The notes: generated from the letters alone by a model not told the origin. DNA of 64,000 bases from a virus (IMGVR_UViG_3300037483_001012:32001-96000); one strand, 5' to 3'. Shown: positions 9,221-56,771, numbered from the stretch's first letter. Numbers and translations are program-made.

Positions 9221-9224
9221 CGCT

Positions 9225-23458: not shown

Positions 23459-23492
23459 ACTCTATATTAGCCACCTATTATAATGACTGAAA

Positions 23493-24328: not shown

Positions 24329-24357
24329 TTGACAGGCGTTGCGTCTTATGAGAGGGT
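24329..24357 (+). promoter_or_regulatory. putative sigma70 promoter of the early array
   Basis: TTGACA-N17-GAGGGT with AT-rich upstream tract; -10 degenerate. Confidence 0.45.
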
Positions 24358-24419
24358 ATGAATGCCACGCGATTGTGGCGTGTTCGGAATAGTCCGGACG
24401 AGATATGAGGAAGCACCCA

Positions 24420-24590
24420 ATGCGCGCCATCACCACAACGGCCCTGGTCCTGCTGACACTGGCGGCCCCCGTCGTTGGCCTGCTGTATGTCGTCCCCGCT
24501 GTGAATGCGTGGGAGCTGGCGAACAACTATCCTTATGGCAAGATGTGCAATTCGATCTTTACCGCCAACGTTGACACCTGCCCCCGTTGA
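24420..24590 (+). CDS. small membrane protein
   Basis: Hairpin + GAGGA RBS; hydrophobic N-terminus. Confidence 0.65.
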   Translation: MRAITTTALVLLTLAAPVVGLLYVVPAVNAWELANNYPYGKMCNSIFTANVDTCPR

Positions 24591-24685
24591 TGGCGCGCCA
24601 CGTCCTGCGCCTCTACATGGGGCGCAGTGCGGGGCACGTACCCCGTGATCGGAATGGACCGGTCATCATATGAGGAACCTAAGCC

Positions 24686-24898
24686 ATGGCTACCCTTGAC
24701 CTGCACCCCGGCGCGTACACGTCGCGCAAAGGATTCCGCCCTGTCATCCGCACCTATCGCGATGGCGTCCCGCATGGCTCTAAGGCGTCCGGCTTCCTGT
24801 TCGCCACCAGGGCCGAAGCGGAATCACATGCGCGCATTGCTGCGCTCAATGTGGCTCTGAACTACAACGGCGCGTCCCTTCACGTCGCTGTGCACTAG
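24686..24898 (+). CDS. hypothetical protein
   Basis: Hairpin + RBS. Confidence 0.7.
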   Translation: MATLDLHPGAYTSRKGFRPVIRTYRDGVPHGSKASGFLFATRAEAESHARIAALNVALNYNGASLHVAVH

Positions 24899-24908
24899 GG
24901 CGCGCGCC

Positions 24909-25022
24909 ATGGTCCGCACCATCATCCGTGAGGCCGCCTTTGTCGGGACCTGCCTTGTCGTCGGCACGGTCCTAAGCGGGGTGGGCTTATTGGCTTACCT
25001 GCTGGTGGATTGGCGATTCTAG
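24909..25022 (+). CDS. 37-aa membrane peptide
   Basis: Read manually: MVRTIIREAAFVGTCLVVGTVLSGVGLLAYLLVDWRF; weak RBS. Confidence 0.45.
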   Translation: MVRTIIREAAFVGTCLVVGTVLSGVGLLAYLLVDWRF

Positions 25023-25121
25023 GCGTGCATCGCGTCCTGCCGTCTCGTCACGGGGCGGCAGTGCAGGGTGCAGCTACCCTCCCCGCTGGAATCGACCGCC
25101 GGGGCAAATCGAGGAAAAGAC

Positions 25122-25724
25122 ATGCCACAAGGCCGCGTTGAGAAAGTTGATTTTACCTCTGGCGGTGCCGGGAACCAATGGACCACGATTGACGGCGTGA
25201 GGTACGCCACATGGTGGGGTATCAAGACGAAGAATTGGCGCACGGGCGATCTGGTGACATTCGAAGTTTACAGCGCCCCGCTTTGGAGTGGCATGACGCC
25301 AATCGCTTGCGCCAAAAATATCAGCAAGGCCGAAAGCCAAAATATCATCCGCGCCAAGTTGATCGAGGCCCGCGCTCTTATTGCAGACCGTTCTAACTGG
25401 TGCATGGGAATGCACGCCAGCGACCGCGACGGAAATGCCGTCTATCACAATGAACCGAACGCCAAATGCTTTTGCGCCGATGGCGCGCTAGGCAAGGTCT
25501 GTGGCGTCGAAATAAGCCCCGCCGGGGATTGGCAAAACAACCCTCTCTATAATTCGGTACGAAGCGTCGTCTGGGATGCAGCAACCCGCGAATTCGGCAA
25601 AAGCCATGTTTGCGTCAATGATGGTGAGCACCTGCCGGACGACTTCGATGACGATTCCGTTGTCGCCCGCTCACACCGCGATATTCTAACCGTTTTTGAC
25701 AAGGCGATTGAGGCAATCGCCTAG
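25122..25724 (+). CDS. hypothetical protein (two-domain)
   Basis: Hairpin + RBS; C-terminal ARALI..WC.G..CFCADGAL phage domain. Confidence 0.7.
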   Translation: MPQGRVEKVDFTSGGAGNQWTTIDGVRYATWWGIKTKNWRTGDLVTFEVYSAPLWSGMTPIACAKNISKAESQNIIRAKLIEARALIADRSNWCMGMHASDRDGNAVYHNEPNAKCFCADGALGKVCGVEISPAGDWQNNPLYNSVRSVVWDAATREFGKSHVCVNDGEHLPDDFDDDSVVARSHRDILTVFDKAIEAIA

Positions 25725-25955
25725 CGCGCGCCGCGACGTGCGCCGGGTCCGCCCGGCGCATATCAGGGCGCGGCTACGTCTGGCCTAAGCCTCAGTGCGG
25801 CGCTACCAGTGGGTAGCGTGCGGCACGGGCGACGATGCAGGGGCAAACCGGACCGGGCGGGATTCCCGGAATGGACTCCCTGATGACGGGCAGGCAATCC
25901 CGCCGCGACAACCCTACCGCCCGGAATGGTCCGGGCGGGACATGAGGAACGAACT

Positions 25956-26084
25956 ATGAAACCCGCGATATTGCCCAATCCTTTCGACGATCTCGCCGCG
26001 CCGGCCAAGCGCAAGGCCAAGCGAAGGAAGCCCGCCCGCAAGCCGGCGACGCGCCGCAAGGTGGCCACACGCCGCAAGCGATAG
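25956..26084 (+). CDS. 42-aa highly basic protein
   Basis: Read manually: MKPAILPNPFDDLAAPAKRKAKRRKPARKPATRRKVATRRKR; hairpin + RBS. Confidence 0.7.
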   Translation: MKPAILPNPFDDLAAPAKRKAKRRKPARKPATRRKVATRRKR

Positions 26085-26192
26085 GCGCGCGCCGCGTTGT
26101 GCAGCTCGTCGACAGACGGGCTGCATAGCAGGGCGCGGCCTAGGCCAGCTCTACCGTTCGGAATAGTCCGGACGGGTATCGAGGATCGTAAC

Positions 26193-26375
26193 ATGCTCTA
26201 TGCAAACGTCCGCGTTGCGCGCGCCGCAACCGGCCTCTGGTCCGCCTTCGGGTCATGGGTCGGCGGCTCCTTTCATGTGCTTGGCTGCCTGTCGGATACC
26301 GAGGCCCGCGCCTTCGCGCGTGGCCGGTGCCTGGCCATCGGACGCGCGCCCCGCTACATCGGGGGTTCGCGATGA
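26193..26375 (+). CDS. hypothetical protein
   Basis: Hairpin + RBS. Confidence 0.65.
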   Translation: MLYANVRVARAATGLWSAFGSWVGGSFHVLGCLSDTEARAFARGRCLAIGRAPRYIGGSR

Positions 26376-26461
26376 AACGCAAACCCATCGCCTATGTCCG
26401 GCGCCGCACCCGAAAATTCGTGCGGACCGACAAGCGCGCGTTTCTGGAGTCGTGCCAATGA
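26372..26461 (+). CDS. 29-aa basic peptide
   Basis: ATGA overlaps on both sides. Confidence 0.45.
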   Translation: MKRKPIAYVRRRTRKFVRTDKRAFLESCQ

Positions 26462-26535
26462 TTAGCACCCCCGAGGCCATCGCCCTTGTCGTCCTGGCGC
26501 TTGTCTTGCTATGGCAGGCGTTCAGGCCAGCGTGA
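26458..26535 (+). CDS. 25-aa membrane peptide
   Basis: ATGA overlap; MISTPEAIALVVLALVLLWQAFRPA. Confidence 0.45.
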   Translation: MISTPEAIALVVLALVLLWQAFRPA

Positions 26536-26624
26536 CGTTGCGAAGCGGGGCGGCAGGTTCGCCCCGTCACGGAACGCCAAGCCGTCCCTTGCTGGAATTG
26601 TCCGGCACGAATTGAGGAATCGAT

Positions 26625-27533
26625 ATGAACATGATGGTAGGCCCGGAAGCCATGACGGCGGCCGCTCTTTCGTCCCGCGCAATGCTGGCGCGCCTGAAAA
26701 TCTGCACTTGGTCGGCGACCAAACTTGACCGCAAGGTAACCGACAAGGTGAATACGGAACACCATGCCGCGCATGACGCCGGGCGCTATAACAAGCGCCT
26801 GCTTTCCAAAAGCGCAACGGCGGTCTTGACGCGGGTTTGCAGCGAGGCGCGCGCCGCGCACTACGCCCGCACCCTGCCCTGGCAGGATGACGGCGTGCGC
26901 ATTCTTTCGGCCGCCGCGTATATGGAATACGCGGAAAAAATGGCCGGGCTGCGCTCTCAATTCGATGCGGCGGCCGACTCCTTCGCGATAGGCTATGCCG
27001 AATTCGTGATTGATGAACGCGCGCGGCTTAACGGCATGTTCAATGCCGACGACTACCCGCCGGCGGAGATCATCCGCAACCGCTTTACCTTTGACGTGAA
27101 AATCGATGTGATGCCGGACGCGTCCGACTTCCGGGTCGACTTGGGCGAGGCGCAAGCGGCGGAGATCCGCGCCGATATCGAGGCGCGGACCAAACAAGCC
27201 TTGGCCGACGCGATGCGCGACGTATGGGAACGCGTTGCGGAAAGCGTTGGCCACATGGCGGACCGGCTGAAAAACTACCGCCCGGCGGAAACCAAAGGCG
27301 ACAAGTCGCAAGGCATTTTCCGCGATTCGCTGGTGGAGAATATCCGCGATCTCGTCGCCGTGCTGCCCGGCCTCAACGTCACGGGCGACCCGCGGCTTGC
27401 CGCCGTCGCGGACCGCCTGCCCGCGTTGTGCCGCGACGACGCGGCGACGTTGCGCGACGACGCCACGGCGCGCGCCAGCGTGGCGGCGGAAGCCGACGCG
27501 ATCTTAAAAGACGTATCGGAATATCTGGCCTAA
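26625..27533 (+). CDS. DUF3150-like protein
   Basis: WSATKLD, TLPWQDDGVRIL, FNADDYP, IFRDSL, LNVTGDP; typical partner of MoxR/VWA genes. Confidence 0.65.
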   Translation: MNMMVGPEAMTAAALSSRAMLARLKICTWSATKLDRKVTDKVNTEHHAAHDAGRYNKRLLSKSATAVLTRVCSEARAAHYARTLPWQDDGVRILSAAAYMEYAEKMAGLRSQFDAAADSFAIGYAEFVIDERARLNGMFNADDYPPAEIIRNRFTFDVKIDVMPDASDFRVDLGEAQAAEIRADIEARTKQALADAMRDVWERVAESVGHMADRLKNYRPAETKGDKSQGIFRDSLVENIRDLVAVLPGLNVTGDPRLAAVADRLPALCRDDAATLRDDATARASVAAEADAILKDVSEYLA

Positions 27534-27629
27534 GTGCATTCCGGCTAGGCGCGGCGGTAACGCCGCGCCCTTCCCGAGCGCATAACGCCCGCCGCGCGGA
27601 ATGGCCCGCACGGATTTGAGGAAACCGCT

Positions 27630-28643
27630 ATGAACCTGATTCAAGCATCCGCCGCACTCAATGCCTACATGGCGGCAAACGTGCCAACGTTCCTTTGGGG
27701 CGCGCCCGGCATCGGCAAGTCCGATCTGACGCGCGACGTGGCTAAGGCGAACGATATGCCGCTAATCGACGTGCGCGCAATCTTGCTCGATCCCGTCGAC
27801 CTTCGCGGGCTGCCCACCGTGACCGATGGCCGCGCGACCTGGGCGCAACCGGATTTCTTGCCGCGCGCGGACCGGGACGGCCCTAAGGGCATTCTGTTGC
27901 TTGATGAATTGAACGCCGCGCCCGCGTCGGTGCAAGCCGCACTTTTCCAACTGATTCTTGACCGCAAGCTAGGCGAATACACCTTGCCGCCGGACTGGCG
28001 CATTGTCGCGGCCGGTAACCGCCAAAGCGATCGCGCGGCGGCGCAGCGAATGCCGTCCGCCCTGGCCAATCGCTTCGCGCATATCGACGTTGACGCCGAC
28101 GTGACCGCCTGGGGCAAATGGGCGGCGGCGAACAATATCGCGCCGATGGTGCTGGCGTTCATCCGTTTTCGTCCCGCCCTGCTGCACGCCATGGAAGGAA
28201 GCGATTTGCGCGCGTTCCCGACACCGCGCGCATGGGCAACCGTTGCCCGACTCCCGCAAGTCCAGACAGTCGGCACGGCGGACCGGGACGCGGACGCGTT
28301 CCGGCTGGCCCTGGTCGGCGGCGTCGTCGGCGAAGCGGCGGCGGCGGAACTGGAAGGCTTTATACGGGTCTGGCGATCCCTGCCGACAATCGCGGATATC
28401 ATCGCGGACCCGGACGGCGTGACCGTGCCGAACGATCCGGCCACGCTCTACGCGGTTTCAACCGCGCTGGCGCGCAAGGCGGACCGCAAGACCTTTGAAC
28501 CGATCTTGCGCTTTGCCCGGCGCGCCATGGGGCAGGAATTCGGAATCCTGCTTTGCGTCGACGCGATCACGCGCGACCCGGACCTTAAAACGACGCGCGC
28601 ATTCGTTGAATGGGCGTCCGACAATCAGGACGTAACGCTATGA
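27630..28643 (+). CDS. MoxR-type AAA+ ATPase
   Basis: GAPGIGKS Walker A, LLLDE Walker B, AAGN, ALANRF, FPTPRAW. Confidence 0.9.
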   Translation: MNLIQASAALNAYMAANVPTFLWGAPGIGKSDLTRDVAKANDMPLIDVRAILLDPVDLRGLPTVTDGRATWAQPDFLPRADRDGPKGILLLDELNAAPASVQAALFQLILDRKLGEYTLPPDWRIVAAGNRQSDRAAAQRMPSALANRFAHIDVDADVTAWGKWAAANNIAPMVLAFIRFRPALLHAMEGSDLRAFPTPRAWATVARLPQVQTVGTADRDADAFRLALVGGVVGEAAAAELEGFIRVWRSLPTIADIIADPDGVTVPNDPATLYAVSTALARKADRKTFEPILRFARRAMGQEFGILLCVDAITRDPDLKTTRAFVEWASDNQDVTL

Positions 28644-29803
28644 GCCTGCCCCACAAGTTCACGCGCGCCCGCGCCGCGCTGGTCATGCGTCAGCCGTTTT
28701 TCGGAACGCTAGCGCTGCACCTCCGGGCCGAAATGACACCCGAATTTGACACGATGGCAACCGATGGCGTCCGGCTGCTGGTCAATCCGGATTTCTTGGA
28801 AACGCTTTCCGCCTCTGAGGCGGAAGGCGTGATAGCGCACGAAGTTCTACATTGTGCGTCAAAACACCATACGCGGCGCAAAGGCCGTGACGCCAAGCGC
28901 TGGAACATCGCTACGGACCTGGCGATAAACCGCGATCTGATCGCGGCCGGCTTCAAACTACCGGCCGGGGCTCTGATCGATCCCAAGTATGGCGACCTTG
29001 GCGCGGAAGCGATCTACCGCCTGTTAGAGCAAGAAGAGCAAGCCGGCGGCGGTCAATCGCAACCCGCGCCGGGACAATCCGGCGGGACCGATCCGGGCGG
29101 GTGCGGCGAAATTCTCGACGCCGCGCCAGAACACGATACGGCGGCCGTCTCGGCGGCGGAGGCAGAATGGGATACGATCACGCGGCAAGCCGTCAACGTG
29201 GCCAAGGCCCGCAACGCCGGGCAGGTCCCCGGCAATCTGGCGCGCCTTGTGGAAACCATGAACGCGCCGCGCGTCGACTGGCGCGGCGTGCTGCGCCGCT
29301 TTGTCGACGAGTCTACGTCCCGCGACTTTTCATGGATGCGACCTAACCGCCGCCACCTGTACGCGGGCCGGATCATGCCGGGCTACGTCCCGGACCGGCC
29401 GTCCCATGTCGTGGCAATGATTGACACGTCCGGGTCAATTCAGCCGGCGGACCTGGCCGCGTTCCGAACTGAGATACAGGCCGCGCTTGACGACGGCGCG
29501 GCGGACCGGGTGACCGTGGCCTATGCCGATACGGTGGTGCATGCGCATGACGAATTCGCCGCCGGGGATCTCGTTCGCATGGAAGCCAAGGGCGGCGGCG
29601 GCACGTCGTTTGCGCAGCCGTTGGCATGGGTTGCCGAGAACGTGCCGGACGTTTCGGCGGTCCTCTATATGACCGATTGCCAAGTGACCGAATGGGGCGA
29701 CCCGCCCGCGCCCGTGCTTTGGGTTGTGACCGGCGACCCGCGCACGGCGGCGCGGTGCGCAGCGCGCGCGCCGTTCGGGGAGGTAATCATTTTGGCGGAC
29801 TAG
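28640..29803 (+). CDS. metallopeptidase + VWA domain protein (DUF2201-like)
   Basis: TMATDG, HEVLH (HExxH), WNIATDLAIN, MIDAS DTSGS, GGGT, TD. Confidence 0.88.
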   Translation: MSLPHKFTRARAALVMRQPFFGTLALHLRAEMTPEFDTMATDGVRLLVNPDFLETLSASEAEGVIAHEVLHCASKHHTRRKGRDAKRWNIATDLAINRDLIAAGFKLPAGALIDPKYGDLGAEAIYRLLEQEEQAGGGQSQPAPGQSGGTDPGGCGEILDAAPEHDTAAVSAAEAEWDTITRQAVNVAKARNAGQVPGNLARLVETMNAPRVDWRGVLRRFVDESTSRDFSWMRPNRRHLYAGRIMPGYVPDRPSHVVAMIDTSGSIQPADLAAFRTEIQAALDDGAADRVTVAYADTVVHAHDEFAAGDLVRMEAKGGGGTSFAQPLAWVAENVPDVSAVLYMTDCQVTEWGDPPAPVLWVVTGDPRTAARCAARAPFGEVIILAD

Positions 29804-29876
29804 CGAACATCGAGGACGCGCCGCGCGCGCCCTCTCTCTCGTGCGGAATAGTCCGCACGTCATTGGAGGATATGGA

Positions 29877-30392
29877 ATGCTTACAAAGCATGAACTGCGC
29901 CGCGCCATGGGCGAAGCATATGGCGCTTGGTACTGGCGCACGCCGGGCCGCTTCGCACACAAGGCCGGACCGGACGGGAAAGCCGAGCGGGTCGCCTATA
30001 TCCTAAAATATCGGGCGCGTCGCGCGGAACTAAGCGCCGGGACGTTCCGGCCGGAAGTAAACGCGCGCGGCAACGTCGTTTTGCGCGATCATGATGCAGA
30101 CCGCGCGTTGCGCTTGCGCAATGCCGGCGACCGCTACGCATACGATTTTGGTCCGTGCCGGGCCTGGATTCAATTCGATACCCGACAAGATGCCATCTAC
30201 TTTGGCGTATGGGTGAACCCAGACAATCGCCAAATATTCACCTACTGCGAAGGCGACCGGATTCTAGTTACATGCCCGACGCCCGAGTCATTCCGCACCG
30301 AGTTGATCGACGCAAAAGAATTCTACGGCGCGCCGATTCCGCCACCGCTGCAAGATTTACTCGCCGATCTGGAGTCGGCCACCTGTAACTAA
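29877..30392 (+). CDS. hypothetical protein
   Basis: Hairpin + RBS; WIQFDT.QDA.YFGVWVNP motif. Confidence 0.7.
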   Translation: MLTKHELRRAMGEAYGAWYWRTPGRFAHKAGPDGKAERVAYILKYRARRAELSAGTFRPEVNARGNVVLRDHDADRALRLRNAGDRYAYDFGPCRAWIQFDTRQDAIYFGVWVNPDNRQIFTYCEGDRILVTCPTPESFRTELIDAKEFYGAPIPPPLQDLLADLESATCN

Positions 30393-30486
30393 TCGCGCGC
30401 GTCGCGGTTTGCCGCGCCATGCGCGCGGCATTCCAGGGCGCGGCCCTATGCCGGGAATGGTCCCGGCGTTCAAATGAGGAAAGCAC

Positions 30487-30879
30487 ATGCCCGATATCTC
30501 AAAGCTTGTATCAGAACTGCGCCTTGGCGACCAAGTTGATTTGGAAGGCGACAAATTTGCGGACCCGCGCCTCGACAAGCCCGCGCTCCAAAGTGAATAC
30601 CAACGCGTCGTCAGCGTTGAACGGGAAAGTACCAATTGCATCGCTGTCGCCTTCGAGGGATTCGACTTAATCGGATTCCCGCCGGACCACCGCGTTAAGG
30701 TAGCGCCATGCCAGACAACAAAAATCAGCGTTCCGAGAGCCATGAGCGCGACGCAAGCCGATCTCGCCGCGTCATTGGCCTGCTACACGTCCGACGATGA
30801 TTGGGGCGATGACCGGCGTGCGTTCCTGCAATCTGTCAGTGATCGAATCCTCTTGGATTTGATGACTGGCGAATACTAG
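30487..30879 (+). CDS. hypothetical protein
   Basis: Hairpin + RBS. Confidence 0.7.
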   Translation: MPDISKLVSELRLGDQVDLEGDKFADPRLDKPALQSEYQRVVSVERESTNCIAVAFEGFDLIGFPPDHRVKVAPCQTTKISVPRAMSATQADLAASLACYTSDDDWGDDRRAFLQSVSDRILLDLMTGEY

Positions 30880-31004
30880 GCGGCTCGCGCCTACTCCATA
30901 AATCGTCACTCTCCTAATCGTCCGCCATAATATTTACGCAATTATAGCGGATGGTGCCAAGATCAATTCGGTTTGGAATAGTCCGGACCACATATGAGGA
31001 ACAC

Positions 31005-31241
31005 ATGTCACACAAACCCGACTTTGACATCATCGATACCGGATCGCTGGCGCTATTCACGCCAATGACGGAACGGGCAATCGATCATGCCGAGCAACAT
31101 CTTGCCGACGCCATGACGCACGGCCTCAGCTACGTTGTGGAGCGCCGCTACGCCCTCGATATCGTCAACGACCTGATGAACGAGCATGGCTTTACCGTCA
31201 TGATCGACGGTCGCGAACTGGCGTCCATCTCGCCCGTCTAG
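31005..31241 (+). CDS. hypothetical protein
   Basis: Hairpin + RBS. Confidence 0.72.
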   Translation: MSHKPDFDIIDTGSLALFTPMTERAIDHAEQHLADAMTHGLSYVVERRYALDIVNDLMNEHGFTVMIDGRELASISPV

Positions 31242-31283
31242 CTTTCACGTTCGGAATGGTCCGAACAGCGCATGAGGAAACCA

Positions 31284-31877
31284 ATGGCAACCACATTTGT
31301 TCTCGATCTTTCCCATCCCGAGCATGGCACCCAAGAAACTCAGGTGACCATCGCTGCCGATGGCGGCTTCCATATGCATTATGAGGACGATATCGCGCCG
31401 CAGGCGCGTAAGAATGTCGCCTCTCGCTTTGTCGATTACGAAAGCTTCGGTTCAGGTTCCGCCTATGCGGATCGTCTCGAAGAGGTCGGCGACGTATTCA
31501 AGATCACCGGCATAGCATTCGTGGACGTGCCGGCACGGCCCGACATTCGCTTCGCGGTGCGCGGCAACTACTCCACCGATGAACAGGGCGATTGGTCCGA
31601 CTGGATCATGGCGAGCGATAAAGAGCGCGCCGAATTTCTGGCGCGGTGGACGATGGCGGAGAACGAACGCGCCGACCCGTCCAGCGAACATGACTTCCAA
31701 ATCACCATGGAAGAGATCGAGATCAAGGAATGCTACCCGGAGCCGTTCACCAAAGACGAACTGGCAAAATTCGTGGGAACGATTGCGCGGATGATCCCGA
31801 CCGAGGACGGGGACGATTCAATCGCAACCGTCAATCGTTTGATCGAGGACGCCCGCAAGCTTCTCGGGGTCGTGTAA
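31284..31877 (+). CDS. acidic hypothetical protein
   Basis: Hairpin + RBS; D/E-rich. Confidence 0.72.
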   Translation: MATTFVLDLSHPEHGTQETQVTIAADGGFHMHYEDDIAPQARKNVASRFVDYESFGSGSAYADRLEEVGDVFKITGIAFVDVPARPDIRFAVRGNYSTDEQGDWSDWIMASDKERAEFLARWTMAENERADPSSEHDFQITMEEIEIKECYPEPFTKDELAKFVGTIARMIPTEDGDDSIATVNRLIEDARKLLGVV

Positions 31878-31912
31878 CCCGCGCGGAATAGCCCGCGCAC
31901 GTATAGGAGATC

Positions 31913-32080
31913 ATGAAAATGCGCAAGCTGCCGAAGGACGTTATCGCTGCGCTCAAATGGTCGGCGCGTAGCGTACACCATCCGGCCTGTCCAATCGCGC
32001 GCGGGAAAGATATTGAGACAATCACTCACAACCCGTGCACCTGTCATGTGAAGGCGGCCAAGGACGCCCTGGCAAAGTAG
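31913..32080 (+). CDS. 55-aa His/Cys protein
   Basis: Read manually: H.P.CP...CTCH; hairpin + AGGAG. Confidence 0.62.
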   Translation: MKMRKLPKDVIAALKWSARSVHHPACPIARGKDIETITHNPCTCHVKAAKDALAK

Positions 32081-32129
32081 AGACTGAGACCGCAAGTGGA
32101 ATGGTCCGCGCGCAATGGAGGAAATATTG

Positions 32130-32312
32130 ATGGCAAAAGCCAAGCTGGAAATCCGCATTTGGACCGATGATGACAAAGAGCTTCCTGACGATTTGCCGGA
32201 AGCCTTTGCTCCGCACATGGAGCATGTCGGGAAAATGGCCGAAGAAGGTTGTTTTGCCGGCGAAATCTGCGACGAGAATTTTAGGGGTTGGTGGGAAATC
32301 GTCACGGGCTAG
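32130..32312 (+). CDS. 60-aa acidic protein
   Basis: Hairpin + GGAGG; D/E-rich, ends FRGWWEIVTG. Confidence 0.7.
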   Translation: MAKAKLEIRIWTDDDKELPDDLPEAFAPHMEHVGKMAEEGCFAGEICDENFRGWWEIVTG

Positions 32313-32357
32313 TCAAATCACTAGCGCGGAATAGTCCGCACGCAAAAGGAGGACGGC

Positions 32358-32537
32358 ATGACAATGAAATCAAGCCCTCTCTTTGACCGATGCGTCGCGA
32401 TCATCGTCTGGTCGACGATCATCCTCTGGCTTATTTTCGCGCGCTACCACTCCTTCCGGAGCGCCCGGAAGGCCCGACGCCTGCTCTTGAATCGTCAGGC
32501 GCGCAAGCGCCACAACATGGAGACAGTATCACAATGA
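32358..32537 (+). CDS. 59-aa membrane protein
   Basis: Read manually; hairpin + AGGAGG; one TM helix then basic tail; ATGA overlap. Confidence 0.62.
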   Translation: MTMKSSPLFDRCVAIIVWSTIILWLIFARYHSFRSARKARRLLLNRQARKRHNMETVSQ

Positions 32538-33592
32538 GCCAAGTCATGGTCCTGGCCGGCGACACCGCCGCGCCGTGCTCTTGCGAGAATTGCGGCTGGA
32601 AAGGCACGGCCGCCGCCCTCGAAATGATTTCTGATTTCGAGGATCGCGTATCAGCCGGCGAAACCGTTCCGGCCGGGCAATGCCCGGAATGTGGCGCGCT
32701 TGCGCACCTTGATACGGCCCCCGCTTGGAGCGCCGACGCGCTTTTGTCGCGCGCCAATGATCTGTTCCGTGAAGCGGTTGACGCATGGCCGCAATTCGAC
32801 GGCGACGATGCGGTGAGCGGAGCGGACCTGGTCGAATGGTTCGCGGAGTGGCGCGGGCGCGTGAAGGCGCAACTCGGCGGTGCCATAGCTTCGCCTCTCG
32901 TAACGCAACCGACCTTCGGAGCGGTCACCGTGGCGACCTTCACGCACAAGCACGGCGTCGACACGCGCGTTTTTGCCACCGCCGATGCTGCCGAACTTTG
33001 GCGGCAAGAGATCGCTAAGGAATATTGGCGCGACTTCATGAATGAAGACGCCCCGACCGATCCCGTTGCCATGGCTGATCGCTATTTCGAGCGCGGCAAC
33101 GAGTTGGGGGATGAGTTTTTCGCGGCGGAACAATGCCCCGTTGAAGGACCATCGCCTTCTCTCGACAGCCAATTGGCAATCGATGCGCGCGCCCTGCTGA
33201 TCGAGATCGACGCCGCGCGCGGCAAACCGATTGACGGCGGCACCGTGCTGGACCCGCTGCACCCGATCTGCGCTTTCGCGGAGCATCTATCCGAAACGCT
33301 TAAGGGCGTGCCGGCCAACGAGCAATCGCGCCCGATCCTTGCCGTTATCTGCGACGGCGGCCTGGTGCAAGGCCTCGTATCAACGCGGCCGGCCGTCTTC
33401 GGCGATGTTCTGGTCATCGATTACGACACCGAAGGTGCGGGCGGCAAAGACGTGATGGACGTCAACCAGGGCGATGGCACCTATGCCGAGGCGTGCGTAT
33501 CGCTGCGATCTGTCGAGGCCGCCGCGATTGATCTGCCGCAGGTCATCTTGGATTTGGTCCGACAATCGTCCGAAGATTCCGTCGCGCCTTAA
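32534..33592 (+). CDS. multi-domain hypothetical protein with zinc ribbon
   Basis: CENC...CPECGAL; GGLVQ..VIDYDTEG. Confidence 0.7.
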   Translation: MSQVMVLAGDTAAPCSCENCGWKGTAAALEMISDFEDRVSAGETVPAGQCPECGALAHLDTAPAWSADALLSRANDLFREAVDAWPQFDGDDAVSGADLVEWFAEWRGRVKAQLGGAIASPLVTQPTFGAVTVATFTHKHGVDTRVFATADAAELWRQEIAKEYWRDFMNEDAPTDPVAMADRYFERGNELGDEFFAAEQCPVEGPSPSLDSQLAIDARALLIEIDAARGKPIDGGTVLDPLHPICAFAEHLSETLKGVPANEQSRPILAVICDGGLVQGLVSTRPAVFGDVLVIDYDTEGAGGKDVMDVNQGDGTYAEACVSLRSVEAAAIDLPQVILDLVRQSSEDSVAP

Positions 33593-33663
33593 ATTCCGCC
33601 GCAATCGTCAACTACCGTTTTCAAATTCTGGAATAGTCCGGAACAAACATGAGGAAAAAACCA

Positions 33664-34989
33664 ATGAACGCAATGACACCCGCTTTCTCCCCCGCGCGCC
33701 CGGCCAGCGATGCCGAGTCCGCGGCAATCGCCGCCTCGATGGTCCCGGCAAAGCCGGACCCGATTCCAGCCTCCCACACTCTCACCGCTCACGCGCGGCT
33801 GGACGGCCCGTCACTGACTGCCGCGATCAACGCGTGCATCCGCATTGTCGAGAAACGCAACGCCGCTCCGATGTTCGCCAACGTCATGCTTACCGCCAGC
33901 GCCGGCGGCGTGACCATGGAAGGGACCGACGGCGACATTGTCATTACGGTGCCGATCAACGGCACGGCTGACGCCAATTTTGCCACGACGATCCCCGCCC
34001 ATATGTTGCGCGACGTTCTGCGCAAGGCCAAGGGCTGCGAAATGGTCACTGTTGACCTGACCGAAAAGACCACGTACCGCGCGCCGTACGGCTATGAGAA
34101 GACCCTCGACCCGGTCCCGACGGTCGATAACCGCAATTCGCTGCGCATGGGTCGCTTCAAGGTTACGTTGAATGGCCTGCCGGCGGCCGACTTCCCCAAG
34201 CTCAAACCGGAATCTCGGCAATTCAGCCACAAGTTCACCATGCCGGCGGCCGATCTGGCGCGCGCACTTTCCAAGGTCGAATTCTGCATCTCGACTGAGG
34301 AAACGCGCTACTACTTGAACGGCATCTACATGCACGTCCCTCACCATTCGAAAGCAAGGCCGGCGACGCTGTGCTTTGCCGCGACGGATGGCCATCGCAT
34401 GGGCGTCGCCGACATCCCGGCGCCGGATGGCGTCTTTGGTATGCCCGGCGTCATCGTGCCGGCCAAGGCCGTGGCTGAATTCATCCGACTGTGTTCTGCC
34501 AAACCGGTTGCCGAGCATTATGTCACCATCTCTGTTTCGCCAGCGCGGGTACAACTCCAGGCCGGCGACGTGACGGTGAACTCCTACGTTATCGATGGCA
34601 CCTACCCGGACTACGGCCGCGTCGTCCCGTCCGGCAATGACAAGCTGGCGCGCGTCGATATCGCCGACCTGATCGACGCGGTCGACAAGGTTTGCGTCAT
34701 CTCGTCGGAGCGCGGCCGTACGGTCAAGCTCGCCTTCACGGCTGGCAACTGCTTGCTGACCGTGGTCAACCCGGATACCGGCGCTGCGACCCTGCCGATC
34801 GATCTGGAATATTCCAGCAACCCCATGGATATCGGCTTCAACTCCAGATATCTGACTTCCATCCTGGAGATGTTCGACGGCGACGTGGTCGAAATGCTGA
34901 TGGCCGATCCCGGCTCGCCGACACTCTTCACCGGTCGCGACACCAAGGACTCCGGGGTACGGTACGTGCTCATGCCAATGCGGGTGTAG
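33664..34989 (+). CDS. dnaN: DNA polymerase III beta sliding clamp homolog
   Basis: STEETRYYLNG, ATDGHR, IDGTYPDY, IGFNSRY, YVLMPMRV. Confidence 0.93.
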   Translation: MNAMTPAFSPARPASDAESAAIAASMVPAKPDPIPASHTLTAHARLDGPSLTAAINACIRIVEKRNAAPMFANVMLTASAGGVTMEGTDGDIVITVPINGTADANFATTIPAHMLRDVLRKAKGCEMVTVDLTEKTTYRAPYGYEKTLDPVPTVDNRNSLRMGRFKVTLNGLPAADFPKLKPESRQFSHKFTMPAADLARALSKVEFCISTEETRYYLNGIYMHVPHHSKARPATLCFAATDGHRMGVADIPAPDGVFGMPGVIVPAKAVAEFIRLCSAKPVAEHYVTISVSPARVQLQAGDVTVNSYVIDGTYPDYGRVVPSGNDKLARVDIADLIDAVDKVCVISSERGRTVKLAFTAGNCLLTVVNPDTGAATLPIDLEYSSNPMDIGFNSRYLTSILEMFDGDVVEMLMADPGSPTLFTGRDTKDSGVRYVLMPMRV

Positions 34990-35078
34990 CACGCGCATGC
35001 CTACGCGGCGGGGCGCGTTGTCCCGCCGCAGCTACCAGCGCCAGGAATGGTCCTGACGCCAGATATGGGAGCCGCGAT

Positions 35079-35498
35079 GTGACCACAGCCCTTTCATTTT
35101 TGTTCGAAAAATACGCGAACCTACAGCCGGAAGACCCACACTGGATTTGCGACGGGGCCGATGACGAGTCGGCGGACTACTGCCGGAAATGCGCCTTGGC
35201 CAAAATCAAGAAGGACGGCAAAGGCGAACTGAACATGTCGGTCGCGCCCGAAAGCGATAGCTGTAGCCACTGCGAGCAATGCGGCAAGTTGCTCGACTAT
35301 TGCCTCACGAACTCAGGCGCCGACGCGGAGCTAGATCACTTCCGTAAGGTCAAATTCCGGCGCGGCAAACCGCTCGACCGGCAAACCGCATACCATTTGG
35401 CCAGGATGCTTGCGGCCAAGGGGGGCGACTTTGAGGCGACCGAGATTGCTGCGCGCGCTATCCGCTGCATGAAGTCGATCCCAAATATCTCGCATTAA
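35079..35498 (+). CDS. hypothetical zinc-binding protein
   Basis: Hairpin + GGAG, GTG start; CRKC, CEQC. Confidence 0.62.
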   Translation: MTTALSFLFEKYANLQPEDPHWICDGADDESADYCRKCALAKIKKDGKGELNMSVAPESDSCSHCEQCGKLLDYCLTNSGADAELDHFRKVKFRRGKPLDRQTAYHLARMLAAKGGDFEATEIAARAIRCMKSIPNISH

Positions 35499-35553
35499 AC
35501 ACGCAACGGCTCACCGCCAGGAATTGTCCCGGCGAAATAGGAGGAACTACCGA

Positions 35554-35913
35554 ATGACCGCAGGTCCCGCAATCTCATTCCGCTCCCTCAACGGTAAATA
35601 CGTCGGCGTCTATGCTTTGCCCGGCGATCAACGCTGGCGGACCGTAGGCGCCAACGGCAAGGACAGCCTGTTCGACACCGCGCGCGAGGCCGAGGCTATC
35701 GCCGGCCACGTCCTATGTGCCAAGATTCATCAATCGCCAGCCGTTCTCCAAGAGCCGCACCGGCAGGAACTGCATGCCCTGCTCAATGACCTGGTCGACT
35801 GGCATGCCATGATGGGCGGATTCGAGGCCCCGGTGTGGGGGCGCGTCGAGAAAATGCGGGAGCGCGTGGCGGCGCCGCCGGCCAGGCCCCGCCTTGTCGC
35901 GGGAGGGCGGTGA
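35554..35913 (+). CDS. hypothetical protein
   Basis: Hairpin + AGGAGG. Confidence 0.68.
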   Translation: MTAGPAISFRSLNGKYVGVYALPGDQRWRTVGANGKDSLFDTAREAEAIAGHVLCAKIHQSPAVLQEPHRQELHALLNDLVDWHAMMGGFEAPVWGRVEKMRERVAAPPARPRLVAGGR

Positions 35914-35914
35914 T

Positions 35915-36166
35915 ATGGCATCCATCGCAATCATCGCACCAGACGGCAACAGCGTTGTCGGCCTATCGCACGAACGCTTGTCGGCTCGCGCCTTAAATCG
36001 CATGGCCGCACGAGTCGGTAATCTCATGGCTGTGCCTGGCATCCGCTATGACAATTCAGTGTGCAGGGGCCTGAACTGGCCACTGCGCTTCCAACTGGTG
36101 ACCGTAATTATCAATGGCCGCTGGCGTACATTCGATCCAGACTATCTGCCGGCCGAGTTTTGGTAA
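35915..36166 (+). CDS. hypothetical protein
   Basis: GGAGG RBS. Confidence 0.55.
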   Translation: MASIAIIAPDGNSVVGLSHERLSARALNRMAARVGNLMAVPGIRYDNSVCRGLNWPLRFQLVTVIINGRWRTFDPDYLPAEFW

Positions 36167-36189
36167 AAAATAATCAGGAGGGCAATGCG

Positions 36190-36507
36190 ATGAACGACCA
36201 CAATGCTAGCGCCGCATCCAATGAATGGCCGGTCCGCCGCTTCCTCGATCTCTCCACCGCGCACCTGCGCCCCGAAACGCGCTCGCTCTGGATGGAATGC
36301 TTCTGCGCAAAAAGCTTCCCTGGCACGGTTCTGATCGGCGAGCACGGCTGGATGCTGCACGTCCCGGAACGCAACACGGATTGGGACTACCGGTGCGGCG
36401 CGGAACTGTTCGCCATCTTCGACAAGGCCCGCTCGCTCAGTTGTGACTACGTGCTGTTCGACGCTGACGGCAGCATGATCGATGGTCTTCCAGTCTTCAA
36501 CGATTGA
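36190..36507 (+). CDS. DUF5983-like protein
   Basis: RRFLDLSTAHL, GWMLHVP, CDYVLFDADG. Confidence 0.65.
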   Translation: MNDHNASAASNEWPVRRFLDLSTAHLRPETRSLWMECFCAKSFPGTVLIGEHGWMLHVPERNTDWDYRCGAELFAIFDKARSLSCDYVLFDADGSMIDGLPVFND

Positions 36508-36553
36508 TTGACCTCAACGAAAACCGCCGACATCAACCAAGAAGGAGATTCCC

Positions 36554-36889
36554 ATGATTGCCTACTGCTACGCGTCCGGTCTGATCCAATTCGGCCGCAA
36601 GACACCCGACGGCGCCATAGCGATCGCGGCCGGCCCGGCGAAGCCGTTGCGCGATCTGATCGACGCCCGCGCTCGCCACGGCTACGAGACCAGGAAGGTC
36701 AAGGGGCGGCCGACGAAGATCCCCGGTACCGAATGCCTGCTGGTGCCCGGCGTTCCCGAGGCGCCAGACCAGGAAGCCGGCGGCGACGCGCTGGGCGCGT
36801 TCTGCAAGTGGATCGGCGAGAAGCCGCCGAAAGGCATAACGGTATTCGGCATGCGTCCGAGCCGCCGGCCTGGCCGCAAGGCCGCCTGA
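36554..36889 (+). CDS. protein of a family often labelled host nuclease inhibitor
   Basis: AYCYASGLIQFG, ARHGY, LLVPGVPEA; label recalled, not verified. Confidence 0.55.
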   Translation: MIAYCYASGLIQFGRKTPDGAIAIAAGPAKPLRDLIDARARHGYETRKVKGRPTKIPGTECLLVPGVPEAPDQEAGGDALGAFCKWIGEKPPKGITVFGMRPSRRPGRKAA

Positions 36890-36926
36890 GTAACACCAGA
36901 TGACCGAACATAGTCAGGAACCGAAC

Positions 36927-37301
36927 ATGGGCAAAAAAACAATCCAAACCTTGCTTGACCTGCTTAATCCGCTACACGGCGCGCTCGATAAGCGGACGAT
37001 GGATTTGCGGGAAGAAAACTACCCCGCCGATTTCTGCCGCGACGACGAGATTGATGTGATCGTTACGCGGGGGATGGAGCGCGATCTGACGCAAGCAGTC
37101 TCTATCCTCGAAAACCGTCTCACCACGGCGGACGACCTGATTGATACGGTCGAGGCAATGCAGTCCTTCATTGGCATCATGTTCGGGCAAGGCCCAGACG
37201 CCATCATTCCCGAAACGGTCAATGCACCCATCGGCATCCCGATCAAGGTCGGTGACCTCATGCGCTCAGTTTCCGCCATTGTCGCGCGGGCCAAAGCGTA
37301 A
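36927..37301 (+). CDS. hypothetical protein
   Basis: AGGA RBS; operon orientation. Confidence 0.55.
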   Translation: MGKKTIQTLLDLLNPLHGALDKRTMDLREENYPADFCRDDEIDVIVTRGMERDLTQAVSILENRLTTADDLIDTVEAMQSFIGIMFGQGPDAIIPETVNAPIGIPIKVGDLMRSVSAIVARAKA

Positions 37302-37341
37302 TTCGCACATAACCCGCAACCGATTGGCACAGGAGAGACCG

Positions 37342-37488
37342 ATGGCCAAGAACACCTACCCGAAGACCGACCGCATCCGCGAACTCCGTGAACAGAAATG
37401 GGAGCGCGACCAAGCCGCGTTGCGGGCGACCGCGTCCAGCCCCAGGCCGGCCGTGAAGCCGGCGCGCCGCAAGCGGGCGAAGAAGTAA
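37342..37488 (+). CDS. 48-aa basic protein
   Basis: AGGAG RBS; MAKNTYPKTDRIRELRE...RRKRAKK. Confidence 0.55.
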   Translation: MAKNTYPKTDRIRELREQKWERDQAALRATASSPRPAVKPARRKRAKK

Positions 37489-37496
37489 CCACGATC

Positions 37497-37922
37497 ATGG
37501 CCGCTTCCGTCTCCGAGATCTCCGACATGTTCGCCCGCGCCAGCTTGTCTATGGCTGCTGCCGAGATCAAGGCCCTGACGAAAGAGGAGATGATCGACTC
37601 TTATATTCTCGCAATCGGCATACATCTTAAGCGCGCCGAACGACTGATAACGCTCGCCTCGCGCCTCAACGCGTCGTCGCGCCTCCCCCGTCGGGCAATC
37701 GCCATCACCGCGATTAACCAAGCGAGCAAACGGGTGATAGCGGCTGAAACTTGCGACGTCCTATTGAGGGCCGTTGACGCGACAAAAGGCGCCCTGCCCT
37801 GGTCGGACGATCCGTACTCGCCGAACATCAAAGACAAGATCGCTATTATTCAGGGTTTCTTGAATGCGCCACCAGCAAGAAAGCCGCGGGCGCGTGACAT
37901 GGACGACGAGATTCCATTCTGA
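37497..37922 (+). CDS. hypothetical protein with SSB-like acidic tail
   Basis: Ends DMDDEIPF. Confidence 0.6.
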   Translation: MAASVSEISDMFARASLSMAAAEIKALTKEEMIDSYILAIGIHLKRAERLITLASRLNASSRLPRRAIAITAINQASKRVIAAETCDVLLRAVDATKGALPWSDDPYSPNIKDKIAIIQGFLNAPPARKPRARDMDDEIPF

Positions 37923-37968
37923 TATCCACGACCCGTCCGGAATCGACCGAACGACATAGGAGGAAGCA

Positions 37969-39300
37969 CTGAACACACATTTCCAACCCGGCGCCTTGGC
38001 GCTCCAGCGCCGTCTCTCCGACGTGGTCGCAGAGTACGATCAAAAACGGGTTGCGCTCGACCAGGCCTTGGTCGATTTCAACACCGCCGGCGAGGCGCTC
38101 AAGATGGCCGCCACCATCGGCGGCACCTATGGCGACACGAACATAGAAACCGGCCACGTGTATGAGCGCGAGCTATCCACCAGCCTCTTGCGATCGGCAT
38201 GGAAACATGTCTACGCCGGACTCAACATCGCTGTTCTCGCCAGCCCGAAGGATAAGCGGCGGTTTGAACAATCGCTGACAGACCCTGCACCCTTCACAAT
38301 CGACAACATCCGGGCGAGCTTTGGCACTTACATCCTCGACCCGCGCGCGGCTATCTTGCGCTCCATGGCCGAAGTGTTCTGCGATCTGGACCCATTCTAC
38401 CGCAGTCACGAGAAGATGAAGGTCGGCGTTAAGGGCCTGCCGAAGCGCGTAATTCTCAATTACATGGGCGACTACAGCAGCCACGGCAGGGAGAAGGTCG
38501 AGGCGATCATCAATGCGATGGCGGCGTTCGAGGGAAAGCCGCTGGTGACGTGGCGCGAAATTAGCGCGCTGCTCAAAGACGAACGCGCCCTGGTCGAAGA
38601 CGGAGACCTCCCCGCTGATCGCACTTGGGACGAGCCTGTCAAGGTCATCGGTCGAGGCATCCGCCTGCGCCGGTTTGGCAACGGCAATGGCCACTTGTTC
38701 TTTGAGCCGGCGGCGCTGCGCACGATCAACCTCGCATTGTCAGAATACTATGGTGAGATCCTGCCTGACTGCGCCGATGACGCGCCCGACGCGCCGCGAG
38801 CGTCAACCGCCGTCGCCAAGGACCTTCAATATTACCCAACACCGGCGAAGGTTGCCGCCGACGTGGTGACCGAGGCCTACGTCAAGAAAGGCGACCTGGC
38901 GCTTGACCCTTCCTGCGGTTGCGGTCGCCTGCTCGACGCGGCGCGTGCTGCCGGCGCCAAGGTGGTTGGCATTGAGGTTGATCCGCTCCGCGCCGCCGAG
39001 GCCATGCGTAAAGGCCACCGCGTCATGGTGGCCAACTTCCTCGATACCGTTCCGACGCCGACCTATGACGTCGTGCTGATGAACCCGCCGTTCTACGGCA
39101 AACACTACGTCAAGCACGTAGAGCACGCCCTCAAATTCCTAAAGTCTGGCGGCAGGCTGATCGCAATCCTGCCGTCGACCGCACGCTATGACCATGGGTT
39201 GGTGGATGGCAGTTGGCGCGACTTGCCGGTCGGCTCATTCAGCGAGAGCGGCACGAATGTGAACACCAGCGTTCTGACGATCCACAACAGGGAACGGTGA
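37969..39300 (+). CDS. DUF4942-domain DNA amino-methyltransferase
   Basis: RRFGNGNGHL, QYYPTP, LDPSCGCG, MNPPF, FSESGT; probable CTG start after AGGAGG. Confidence 0.82.
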   Translation: MNTHFQPGALALQRRLSDVVAEYDQKRVALDQALVDFNTAGEALKMAATIGGTYGDTNIETGHVYERELSTSLLRSAWKHVYAGLNIAVLASPKDKRRFEQSLTDPAPFTIDNIRASFGTYILDPRAAILRSMAEVFCDLDPFYRSHEKMKVGVKGLPKRVILNYMGDYSSHGREKVEAIINAMAAFEGKPLVTWREISALLKDERALVEDGDLPADRTWDEPVKVIGRGIRLRRFGNGNGHLFFEPAALRTINLALSEYYGEILPDCADDAPDAPRASTAVAKDLQYYPTPAKVAADVVTEAYVKKGDLALDPSCGCGRLLDAARAAGAKVVGIEVDPLRAAEAMRKGHRVMVANFLDTVPTPTYDVVLMNPPFYGKHYVKHVEHALKFLKSGGRLIAILPSTARYDHGLVDGSWRDLPVGSFSESGTNVNTSVLTIHNRER

Positions 39301-39303
39301 GTA

Positions 39304-39630
39304 ATGGACCTTCCCAAAAACGTCGGCATCGTCATGCCCTTCATCGACTCGGCGATGGAGGAGTTACGCTGTGTCGACAAAGGCAATCACTCAATCGCCG
39401 TGGTAGTCTCTACAGTCAGAGAAGCCATCAAGCAACTGGTGGCGGCGCAGACGCTGATTAAATTCTTCAACAGCGAACTAACCGACGCCACCATCGATGA
39501 TGTCTGCAACGATCTCCACACCGGCTATGCCGTGGTTAACGGCCGGATGTTTCGAGTGGCCAGCCCATCGTTTTCGCATGGCCACAACTCCATCGAGATC
39601 AAGCTTACGCTGCTGTCAAAGGGGACATAA
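39304..39630 (+). CDS. hypothetical protein
   Basis: Tightly packed in operon. Confidence 0.55.
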   Translation: MDLPKNVGIVMPFIDSAMEELRCVDKGNHSIAVVVSTVREAIKQLVAAQTLIKFFNSELTDATIDDVCNDLHTGYAVVNGRMFRVASPSFSHGHNSIEIKLTLLSKGT

Positions 39631-39633
39631 AGC

Positions 39634-40688: not shown

Positions 40689-40716
40689 ATCGAATCTCTG
40701 CCGTGGTTTTTCGTTT

Positions 40717-56731: not shown

Positions 56732-56771
56732 GGCAAATCATCCTCTGGGATTTTTGGATAATTGTAACGTT

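Follow-up and report, generated by a model that had tools for sequence, protein, structure and literature searches.

A hairpin with a conserved hexaloop in bacteriophages, apparently an mRNA mark of translation starts not described before

The stretch of viral DNA analysed here, called the window below, is 64,000 nucleotides long (IMGVR_UViG_3300037483_001012:32001-96000) and spans positions 32001-96000 of a linear virus record (G000) of 112,714 bp, which is about 94% complete and represents a temperate siphovirus-type genome with about 60% G+C. On the plus strand of the window, adjoining the packaging genes, lies a co-oriented array of about 28 mostly small genes, and it is this array that bears the element in question, a small hairpin with the loop AATNGN (AAUNGN in RNA). 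The products of the array include a DUF6197 protein, a MoxR-type AAA ATPase coupled to a VWA/DUF2201 protein, a sliding clamp and a DUF5983 protein, as well as a host-nuclease-inhibitor-like protein, a DUF4942 methyltransferase and a helix-turn-helix (HTH) protein, and the remainder are ORFans. The gene at 36554-36889 matches the PHROG family 'host nuclease inhibitor' (Gam-like). Since its gene content and its place beside the likely genome end fit such a role, the array is regarded as a probable early or takeover module, the timing being deduced from these two features.

First of all, the window holds 22 matches to the hairpin core GGAATNGNCC, against 3.23 +/- 1.86 in shuffled sequences, and the number 22 was reached in 0 of 100 shuffles. 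Eighteen of the 22 matches sit on the plus strand within 24386-37939, and this pattern count bears out the eighteen plus-strand sites that had been listed in a first-pass annotation of the window. At these array sites the loop is enclosed by 4-8 contiguous pairs, or by 7-9 pairs with one mismatch; that is to say, the GG/CC pairs next to the loop extend by 2-6 more pairs, with one mismatch in six cases (as shown in Table 1). The hairpins are stable, with a mean dG of -12.4 kcal/mol and a mean z of -3.0 against shuffles. In the 17 sites that were scored, the CC is followed after 9-13 nt by GAGG or GGAG and then by a start codon, and the loop in G000 begins 28-33 nt ahead of the start codon. The same annotation had placed a ribosome-binding site (RBS) and a start codon behind every hairpin, which holds at the array sites, except that the site at 37939 has no ATG, GTG or TTG within reach. 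At this site, in front of the DUF4942 methyltransferase gene, an in-frame CTG at 37969 agrees with the spacing of 30-35 nt seen in the other 17 units, and TTG 37996 lies 27 nt downstream, which suggests that the gene starts at the non-canonical CTG. The sequence CTACC, which had been described as often preceding the hairpins, is present at about 7 of the 18 sites and missing at the others. Moreover, the hairpins are intergenic, as had been proposed, and the only array genes to lack one are those in translational coupling or with a gap below about 50 nt; the starts of these genes overlap or closely abut the previous stop codon. A covariance model (R1) was built on the hairpins and searched in 156 kb, that is, G000 plus a second phage genome, G001, which is described below: all copies scored 22.8-32.3 bits, and the next match scored 15.5 bits. 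G000 as a whole holds 19 copies recognised by the model, and there was no match at E <= 1 in 1.4 Mb of other GC-rich phage loci.

Table 1. Hairpins and other features of the window (positions counted from its first nucleotide; aa, amino acids; ORF, open reading frame).
Feature	Position	Strand	Context	Remark
Hairpin 1	24381..24400	+	before 56-aa ORF, start 24420	TGTTCGG aatagt CCGGACG; 29.2 bits
Hairpin 2	24645..24666	+	before 70-aa ORF, start 24686	
Hairpin 3	25081..25104	+	before DUF6197 gene, start 25122	one mismatch
Hairpin 4	25917..25938	+	before 42-aa ORF, start 25956	32.3 bits
Hairpin 5	26154..26175	+	before 60-aa ORF, start 26193	
Hairpin 6	26590..26607	+	before 302-aa gene, start 26625	L274 ortholog likewise with hairpin
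Hairpin 7	27592..27613	+	before MoxR-type AAA ATPase gene, start 27630	L274 and G412 orthologs likewise with hairpin
Hairpin 8	29840..29859	+	before 171-aa gene, start 29877	L274 ortholog likewise with hairpin
Hairpin 9	30448..30469	+	before 130-aa gene, start 30487	
Hairpin 10	30970..30989	+	before 78-aa gene, start 31005	
Hairpin 11	31249..31266	+	before 197-aa gene, start 31284	intergenic gap only 45 nt
Hairpin 12	31881..31898	+	before 53-55-aa ORF, start 31913 or 31919	
Hairpin 13	32096..32109	+	before 60-aa ORF, start 32130	short stem
Hairpin 14	32326..32339	+	before 59-aa ORF, start 32358, coupled to 352-aa gene at 32534	short stem
Hairpin 15	33626..33643	+	before DNA polymerase III beta (sliding clamp) gene, start 33664	
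Hairpin 16	35038..35059	+	before 139-aa gene, GTG start 35079	one mismatch
Hairpin 17	35515..35534	+	before 119-aa gene, start 35554	one mismatch
Hairpin 18	37934..37953	+	before DUF4942 methyltransferase gene	one mismatch; GGAGGA at 37959, in-frame CTG 37969
19th full copy	63856..63875	+	inside plus-strand ORF	TGTCCGG aatagt CCGGACG; 28.4 bits
Second repeat	24591-24644, 25040-25080, 25725-25790, 26085-26150, 27548-27570, 30393-30445, 35004-35030			
Hairpin-bearing array	24420..40688	+	adjoins packaging genes	about 28 mostly small genes, co-oriented
Tape measure protein	2469-6773	-		
Large terminase	16030-18000	-		
CI-type HTH/S24 repressor	56754-57524			

A new observation is that this loop recurs, with unchanged spacing to the start codons, on at least two further contigs of viral or metagenomic origin. 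The first of these, IMGVR_UViG_3300010938_000074 (G001; 41.8 kb, 64% G+C, rated complete), was found by a pattern scan of IMG/VR. Its copies comprise eight exact cores, one A-U variant and two with the loop GAUGGU; all of them are on one strand of an inward-pointing 5-6 kb array at one contig end, and each stands 13 nt ahead of GGAGG and a start. The GAUGGU-loop copies lie on the minus strand at about 16175-16195 and 15480-15500 of G001 (L216) and have the closing pairs C-G/A-U or G-C/C-G; a G is thus allowed at position 1 of the loop, and covariation of the closing pairs is seen inside a single phage. The genes of the G001 array are ORFans together with three pentapeptide-repeat paralogs (L216 13562-19335, minus strand), which are possible DNA mimics. 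Between G000 and G001, tblastn detected no shared proteins at E < 1e-4, and a cutoff of E < 0.02 brought up nothing beyond noise. The second, the metagenome contig Ga0315903_10010834 (L274), was yielded by a VWA search of metagenome contigs, among the matches listed, and carries six copies of the form GGC-AAUNGN-GCC. Its orthologs of g6 (52% identity), MoxR (39%) and g9 (40%) keep the hairpin with the same loop and different stems, and the loop-closing pair is flipped relative to G000 (C-G versus G-C); the coupled VWA gene is without a hairpin in both. That is, over the deep divergence between G000 and L274, position and loop are conserved and the stem is fully replaced. In addition, pattern scans found at least five viral records (G409-G413), each with 2-4 clustered co-oriented copies in the C-G-closing form, which precede small ORFans and another AAA_5 ATPase; since these records were selected by pattern, they are counted as probable members and not used for statistics. 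Across G000, G001, L274 and G409-G413, the loop starts 27-36 nt before the start codon.

Scans that asked for the GG/CC form close to a Shine-Dalgarno sequence, and that ran to completion, returned only G001, besides chance singletons. Among relatives of the sliding clamp, 80 viral loci with at most 43% identity, none has the motif; the relatives of the VWA protein in genome contigs reach 42% identity at best and have no motif, and the VWA module gave 5 matches, 0 with hairpins, in a phylum-wide sample of 401 bacterial genomes. Closer VWA relatives exist at 70%, 64% and 60% identity (P0002-P0004). Homologs of g6 were found at 21 viral loci, where L347 alone has one AAUNGN copy and the rest have different hairpins; at 8000-12700 of L347, a near-invariant CAAAGGAGCAAAC stands ahead of many starts. 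G002 (L234, 11157-14306) was rejected as a member: its five GGAATNGNCC matches arise from repeats within an ORF of 1049 aa that is encoded on the opposite strand, so the bare 10-mer is not diagnostic without its stem and RBS context. L256, a relative of a G001 array gene, has no AAUNGN hairpin and carries a different repeat, GATCAGGACG, units of which stand in tandem ahead of several small genes at 8500-9800.

The clearest sign of structure comes from the alignment of the stems. In a first alignment of 26 sequences, 18 from G000 and 8 from G001, 82% of the cells pair, compared with 61% in column shuffles, and the covariation score is 0.52 versus 0.16, the observed score being reached in 0 of 500 shuffles; when the 3′ partner is slid by 1-3 columns, pairing falls to 26-45%. 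An enlarged set of 33 sequences, all of them found without demanding the full loop plus stem, was obtained by adding L274, L347 and the variant G001 copy, and once these relatives are included all nine stem pairs show changes on both sides. The loop-closing pair is G-C in 26 sequences and C-G in 7, and the next pair is A-U in one. Loop positions A1, A2, U3 and G5 are invariant in 33 of 33 sequences, position 4 can be any base, and position 6 is mostly U. The compensating changes around a conserved loop, which had been described at first sight of the sequence, are thus confirmed by shuffles, slide controls and double changes. Moreover, among the four pairs nearest the loop, G-U exceeds A-C by 14:2 (one-sided binomial P = 0.002). 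Since a duplex-DNA palindrome should show no G-U/A-C asymmetry, the structure is selected on the sense strand. Stems that vary yet stay complementary, the G-U bias, and an orientation and start distance that stay fixed in unrelated phages together uphold the earlier proposal of a single-stranded structure rather than a double-stranded DNA operator.

These results bear directly on the explanation of the hairpin as a DNA-level site, in which a duplex core, or an extruded or single-stranded DNA hairpin used by a HUH nuclease, a recombinase or an integron-like system, would serve for silencing or cassette exchange. The core is asymmetric and co-oriented with transcription, like stoperators (PMC4351075), and the short stem GGC/GCC of the C-G-closing members is nearly constant, so that for those members a DNA site recognised by its sequence is conceivable. 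In G001 there are tandem duplications of a 113-aa gene and of a pentapeptide gene with identical leaders, whose ends fall in repeat modules; they are consistent with module-mediated recombination, and genes bounded by modules are what would be expected if the modules recombine. It is also from these duplicated genes that the earlier idea of exchangeable cassettes receives some support, of an indirect kind. However, a duplex reader would conserve the flanking sequence, whereas here the flanks co-vary and the wobble bias is strand-specific. The fixed start-codon distance has no DNA-level rationale, and the Pfam scans that were run, which were not exhaustive, gave no HUH or integron-type integrase. 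A DNA-level site is considered very unlikely.

As for transcription signals, 7 sigma-70-like promoters were predicted in the array against 6.5 expected, none of them at the hairpins, and 19 terminator-like sites were predicted against 19.8 expected. The hairpins run into a purine-rich Shine-Dalgarno sequence, not a T run, and the intergenic gaps of 44-52 nt at several hairpin sites leave no room for a promoter. Three promoter types were examined and rejected: a sigma-70 promoter, as the would-be -35 is not conserved and the 6 nt before GGAAT (17 nt upstream of an AT-rich box) are not TTGACA-like; an extracytoplasmic function (ECF)-type GGAAT(-35)/CGTC(-10) promoter, as the spacing in G001 is 14 nt and the box is absent in G000; and a sigma-54 promoter, as there is no GG-N10-GC. 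A further reading takes the hairpins for DNA-hairpin promoters used by an RNA polymerase of phage type, comparable to the virion polymerase of coliphage N4, which would give every gene a very short leader. A conserved-loop hairpin at a fixed distance from a purine-rich start region does resemble the early promoters of N4 and the promoter-plus-GGGAGA arrangement of T7. On the other side, the single-subunit RNA polymerase family PF00940, to which the comparison with N4-type hairpin promoters points, had no match in G000 (94% complete) or G001 (100%), a weak negative, as the control genomes gave none either. The N4 virion RNA polymerase has about 3500 aa, and neither phage has a giant ORF, the largest being no more than 1434 aa in G000 and 875 aa in G001. 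In addition, the stretch from hairpin to Shine-Dalgarno is AT-rich in G000 and GC-rich in G001, and the Shine-Dalgarno shifts by 1-3 nt relative to the hairpin, which is like a ribosome site and not like a promoter. Hairpin promoters are therefore regarded as extremely improbable.

The relation of the hairpin to the RBS was evaluated by folding 30 units. The unpaired probability of the Shine-Dalgarno sequence ranges from 0.08 to 0.94 and is not below that obtained with shuffled 5′ flanks; therefore, the hairpin acts beside the RBS, not by hiding it, and it differs from ROSE-type thermometers in that the Shine-Dalgarno is not paired within the element. An anti-Shine-Dalgarno sequence (CUCC/CUCUC) 5′ of the hairpin pairs with the RBS in some minimum-free-energy folds, and this candidate was dropped as unsupported in the ensemble test. 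Pairing with an antisense RNA is disfavoured because loop positions N4 and N6 vary. Moreover, TTCCTCAT is absent from the plus strand of G000, where the best complement covers 19 of 27 bases of the consensus unit, which is at noise level; unlike the case of P1 C4-like antisense modules, no G000 locus complementary to the loop plus RBS was found.

The same folding data bear on a passive insulator, that is, a hairpin without a reader that locks the sequence 5′ of the RBS and keeps GC-rich upstream RNA off the start site. The Shine-Dalgarno is as accessible as with shuffled upstream flanks, or slightly more so, and hairpins of other sequence occupy the same place before the g6 homologs of phages without the AAUNGN loop, both of which fit such a role. 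But an insulator has no need for an invariant loop, yet A1, A2, U3 and G5 are fixed throughout the 33 sequences while every stem position varies, and phages sharing no genes have this loop in common. A passive insulator is accordingly thought decidedly unlikely.

In the longer gaps, a second repeated structure follows the stop codons (Table 1). It consists of a GC-rich outer stem (GCGCGCC...GGCGCGC) around a variable inner hairpin, and a CAGCTACC-like box often lies between it and the small AAUNGN hairpin. The analog in G001 is a three-hairpin module made up of CTCCATGCGTGCGG, a hairpin, CCCGCC-tagc-GGGCGGG and then the AAUNGN hairpin. The second repeat may be a 3′ stabiliser or a processing signal. 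This brings in RNA processing and stabilisation, which is the main rival explanation, the insulator, the DNA-level site and the hairpin promoter being less likely. According to it, an endoribonuclease cuts just upstream of the hairpin, whereupon the 5′-terminal stem-loop protects the downstream cistron and the GC-rich hairpins after stops protect the upstream 3′ ends, and the loop is the mark of the nuclease or of a protective protein. Both the large hairpin and box before the small hairpin in longer gaps and the same three-part layout in G001 speak for it, and a long transcript needing such punctuation is plausible because no internal promoters or terminators are predicted. The RNase III sites between T7 early genes and mRNA-stabilising 5′-terminal stem-loops work as punctuation. 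However, the upstream hairpin and box are missing at half of the sites (gaps 44-76 nt), and G000, G001 and L274 have no conserved single-stranded cleavage sequence in common. A 5′ protector, moreover, needs no tight distance to the Shine-Dalgarno, and no nuclease candidate was found. Processing and stabilisation as the function of the hairpin is held to be unlikely.

The balance of the sequence evidence leans towards an mRNA leader hairpin that is read through its loop by a trans-acting factor and that would set the initiation or stability of the array cistrons. In the polycistronic mRNA of the accessory, probably early array, this cis-acting hairpin would mark each independently initiated cistron. 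A stem of arbitrary sequence, closed by a G-C or C-G pair, would present the invariant hexaloop A-A-U-N-G-N. An exposed Shine-Dalgarno follows about 5-8 nt beyond the 3′ foot of the stem, which places the hairpin at about -40 to -15 from the start codon, at what would be the edge of the 30S binding site. The factor would read the loop and thereby co-regulate the initiation, and possibly the stability, of all tagged cistrons, and its effect could be repression, as a shut-off of the whole set, or activation. The stem conveys nothing but its existence, four loop bases are fixed, and the hairpin stands rigidly at the 5′ edge of the 30S footprint, next to a strong and exposed Shine-Dalgarno; a translational operator or leader tag has this anatomy. 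The pattern of fixed loop positions (1, 2, 3 and 5) and free ones (4 and 6) would fit a predicted A1-G5 cross-loop pair, a pseudo-triloop that would present a three-base turn as in the iron-responsive-element loop.

Since carriers without a detectable common protein share the loop and its distance, the loop may be read by a host protein, or by the ribosome itself, in place of a phage-specific regulator. A further-reaching proposal, which is speculative and unlikely, is that the hairpin is a portable initiation tag read by a conserved host component (an RNA-binding protein or the 30S platform) and not by a phage protein, and that phages without kinship have each set it in front of early, anti-defence and takeover genes for privileged or switchable ribosome access. 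Within the array, the HTH protein (39634-40236) was considered as an Aca2-like reader and rejected: Pfam gave only weak HTH_31/HTH_3 matches, and the PDB sequence search gave only the 434 repressor (E 0.012-0.32). No homolog of the array HTH protein was found in G001.

Several points weigh against a leader hairpin read by a trans-acting factor. No reader of the hairpin was identified. The copy at 63856-63875 lies within an ORF, no start codon stands behind it, and the model leaves it unexplained; its surroundings are a low-complexity, Ala/Pro/acidic-rich stretch of a plus-strand ORF (62741 onward) with GAGGAA 19 nt downstream, and it may be a relic, an internal site or a copy with another use. 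When six pairs are counted, the ratio of G-U to A-C is 16:8 (P = 0.08), a weaker excess, and a fold of sense-strand single-stranded DNA is indistinguishable from RNA by sequence alone. The patterns that selected G409-G413 demanded the loop and a paired closing, and these records add breadth and no independent statistics. Protein sharing was compared at the BLAST level, at which a small, fast-evolving phage RNA-binding protein would be missed, and the records of L274 and G409-G413 are partial.

The early and accessory genes of phages are mostly ORFans, and their control as a group is little understood; here the hairpin tags nearly every independently translated gene of a 16-kb array of the takeover/anti-defence type. 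If a single reader exists, an entire class of phage functions would have one master switch, and if that reader is a host factor, a route of translation control exploited by phages would be exposed. A host-read tag, if true, would give bacteria a second kind of translation signal, of a new class, next to the Shine-Dalgarno sequence. A bait of 20 nt with a defined loop is at hand, which makes the reader easy to seek. In addition, the fixed start distance is an aid to annotation, as in the choice of GTG 35079, of the probable CTG 37969 and of 24420 rather than 24405, and the motif flags early or accessory modules in uncultured phage contigs.

With regard to known families, Rfam 15 gave no match to the hairpin in E <= 1 scans of window positions 23000-41000, L255, L274 and L485. 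The scans produced three sub-threshold hits off the hairpins, namely Mu-gpT-DE (23/49 bits), hya (29/57) and sR43 (21/45); the first lies at 36462-36556 (E 0.17), just before the host-nuclease-inhibitor-like gene, and is probably due to chance. The statement in the first-pass annotation that no named element resembles the hairpin thus stands for Rfam 15 and needs qualification for the literature, where two elements broadly of this kind, with different defining features, have been published: the start-associated sequence (SAS) of Cluster K and the promoter-early stem-loop (PeSL) cassettes of T4-type phages. The hairpin fails at least one defining feature of each published element compared.

Among published elements, the SAS of Cluster K mycobacteriophages (Pope et al. 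2011, PMC3203893) comes nearest. It is a short, asymmetric repeat that begins with GG(G) and ends with CC(C); its 11-19 copies are confined to the non-structural half of the genome, all point the same way and stand a few bases before the starts of small unrelated genes, and the authors proposed that it has a role in translation initiation. The SAS is the 13-bp GGGATAGGAGCCC, which contains the Shine-Dalgarno and lies 3-7 bp from the start; in its extended form it includes a 17-bp inverted repeat without compensatory changes, and the authors favoured a DNA-binding protein (PMC3203893). The hairpin likewise has one orientation, is confined to non-structural genes and stands directly upstream of unrelated starts, but its core GGAATNGNCC lies upstream of a separate Shine-Dalgarno, its stems co-vary strongly and the loop alone is conserved. 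The PeSL of T4-type phages (Arbiol et al. 2010, PMC2839356) combines a strong sigma-70 promoter with a terminator stem-loop in repeated cassettes between small non-essential early genes, which are shuffled by recombination between copies. Stem-loop cassettes among small genes, and duplicated genes bounded by modules in G001, are points of likeness, whereas the present hairpin has no promoter or terminator signal and is tied to the RBS.

In the Aca2/Aca1 systems (PMC13551039), a protein bound to a structured hairpin next to the RBS controls the translation of the anti-CRISPR operon, with at most 3 predicted sites per regulator; there the stem is recognised by the HTH protein as a duplex similar to the DNA operator of that protein, and the stem sequence is conserved. 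In contrast, all nine pairs of the present stems vary and it is the loop that is conserved; the sites number 18, and no Aca2-family (DUF1870-like) regulator was found by Pfam/PDB sequence search. In the hairpin of T4 gp43 and the coat-protein hairpins of MS2 and PP7, a protein reads loop bases near the RBS, and the PP7 loop has six bases; T4 RegA represses many early messages at once through targets that are unstructured AU-rich sites. The function proposed here is comparable to RegA control of early messages or to the coat-protein and gp43 operators. Those operators, however, are single sites, apart from the RegA targets, and belong to single lineages with their own protein, whereas the AAUNGN loop is common to phages without a shared protein.

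Among repeated sites of mycobacteriophages, the Cluster A stoperators are tens of short asymmetric repeats that are transcription-oriented and act as sequence-invariant double-stranded DNA sites, and the repeats of Cluster O are 17-bp perfect palindromes, a third of them inside genes and unlinked to starts (PMC4351075). Unlike both, the flanks of the hairpin keep complementarity, not sequence. The targets of ANTAR proteins are hexaloop hairpins arranged as a tandem pair, in which loop position 1 is A and position 4 is G, and in mycobacteria they act near the RBS. They share with the present element a six-base loop, few fixed positions (A and G) and variable stems, and differ from it in that it is a single hairpin with A1, A2, U3 and G5 and has no Rfam match.

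The nearest database relatives of G000 show a protein identity of only 30-43% and are mostly phages of Alphaproteobacteria. An IS1595-type element, which has only 65-70% DNA identity to plasmids of Acidiphilium and sphingomonads, suggests that the host is alphaproteobacterial. G000 also encodes DnaB with an intein, a primase and several methyltransferases. Inteins are present in two minus-strand replication/modification genes, at 41590-44016 and 48150-50528: the DnaB helicase intein has a LAGLIDADG homing endonuclease domain, and the C-5 cytosine methyltransferase has Hint/intein splicing domains.

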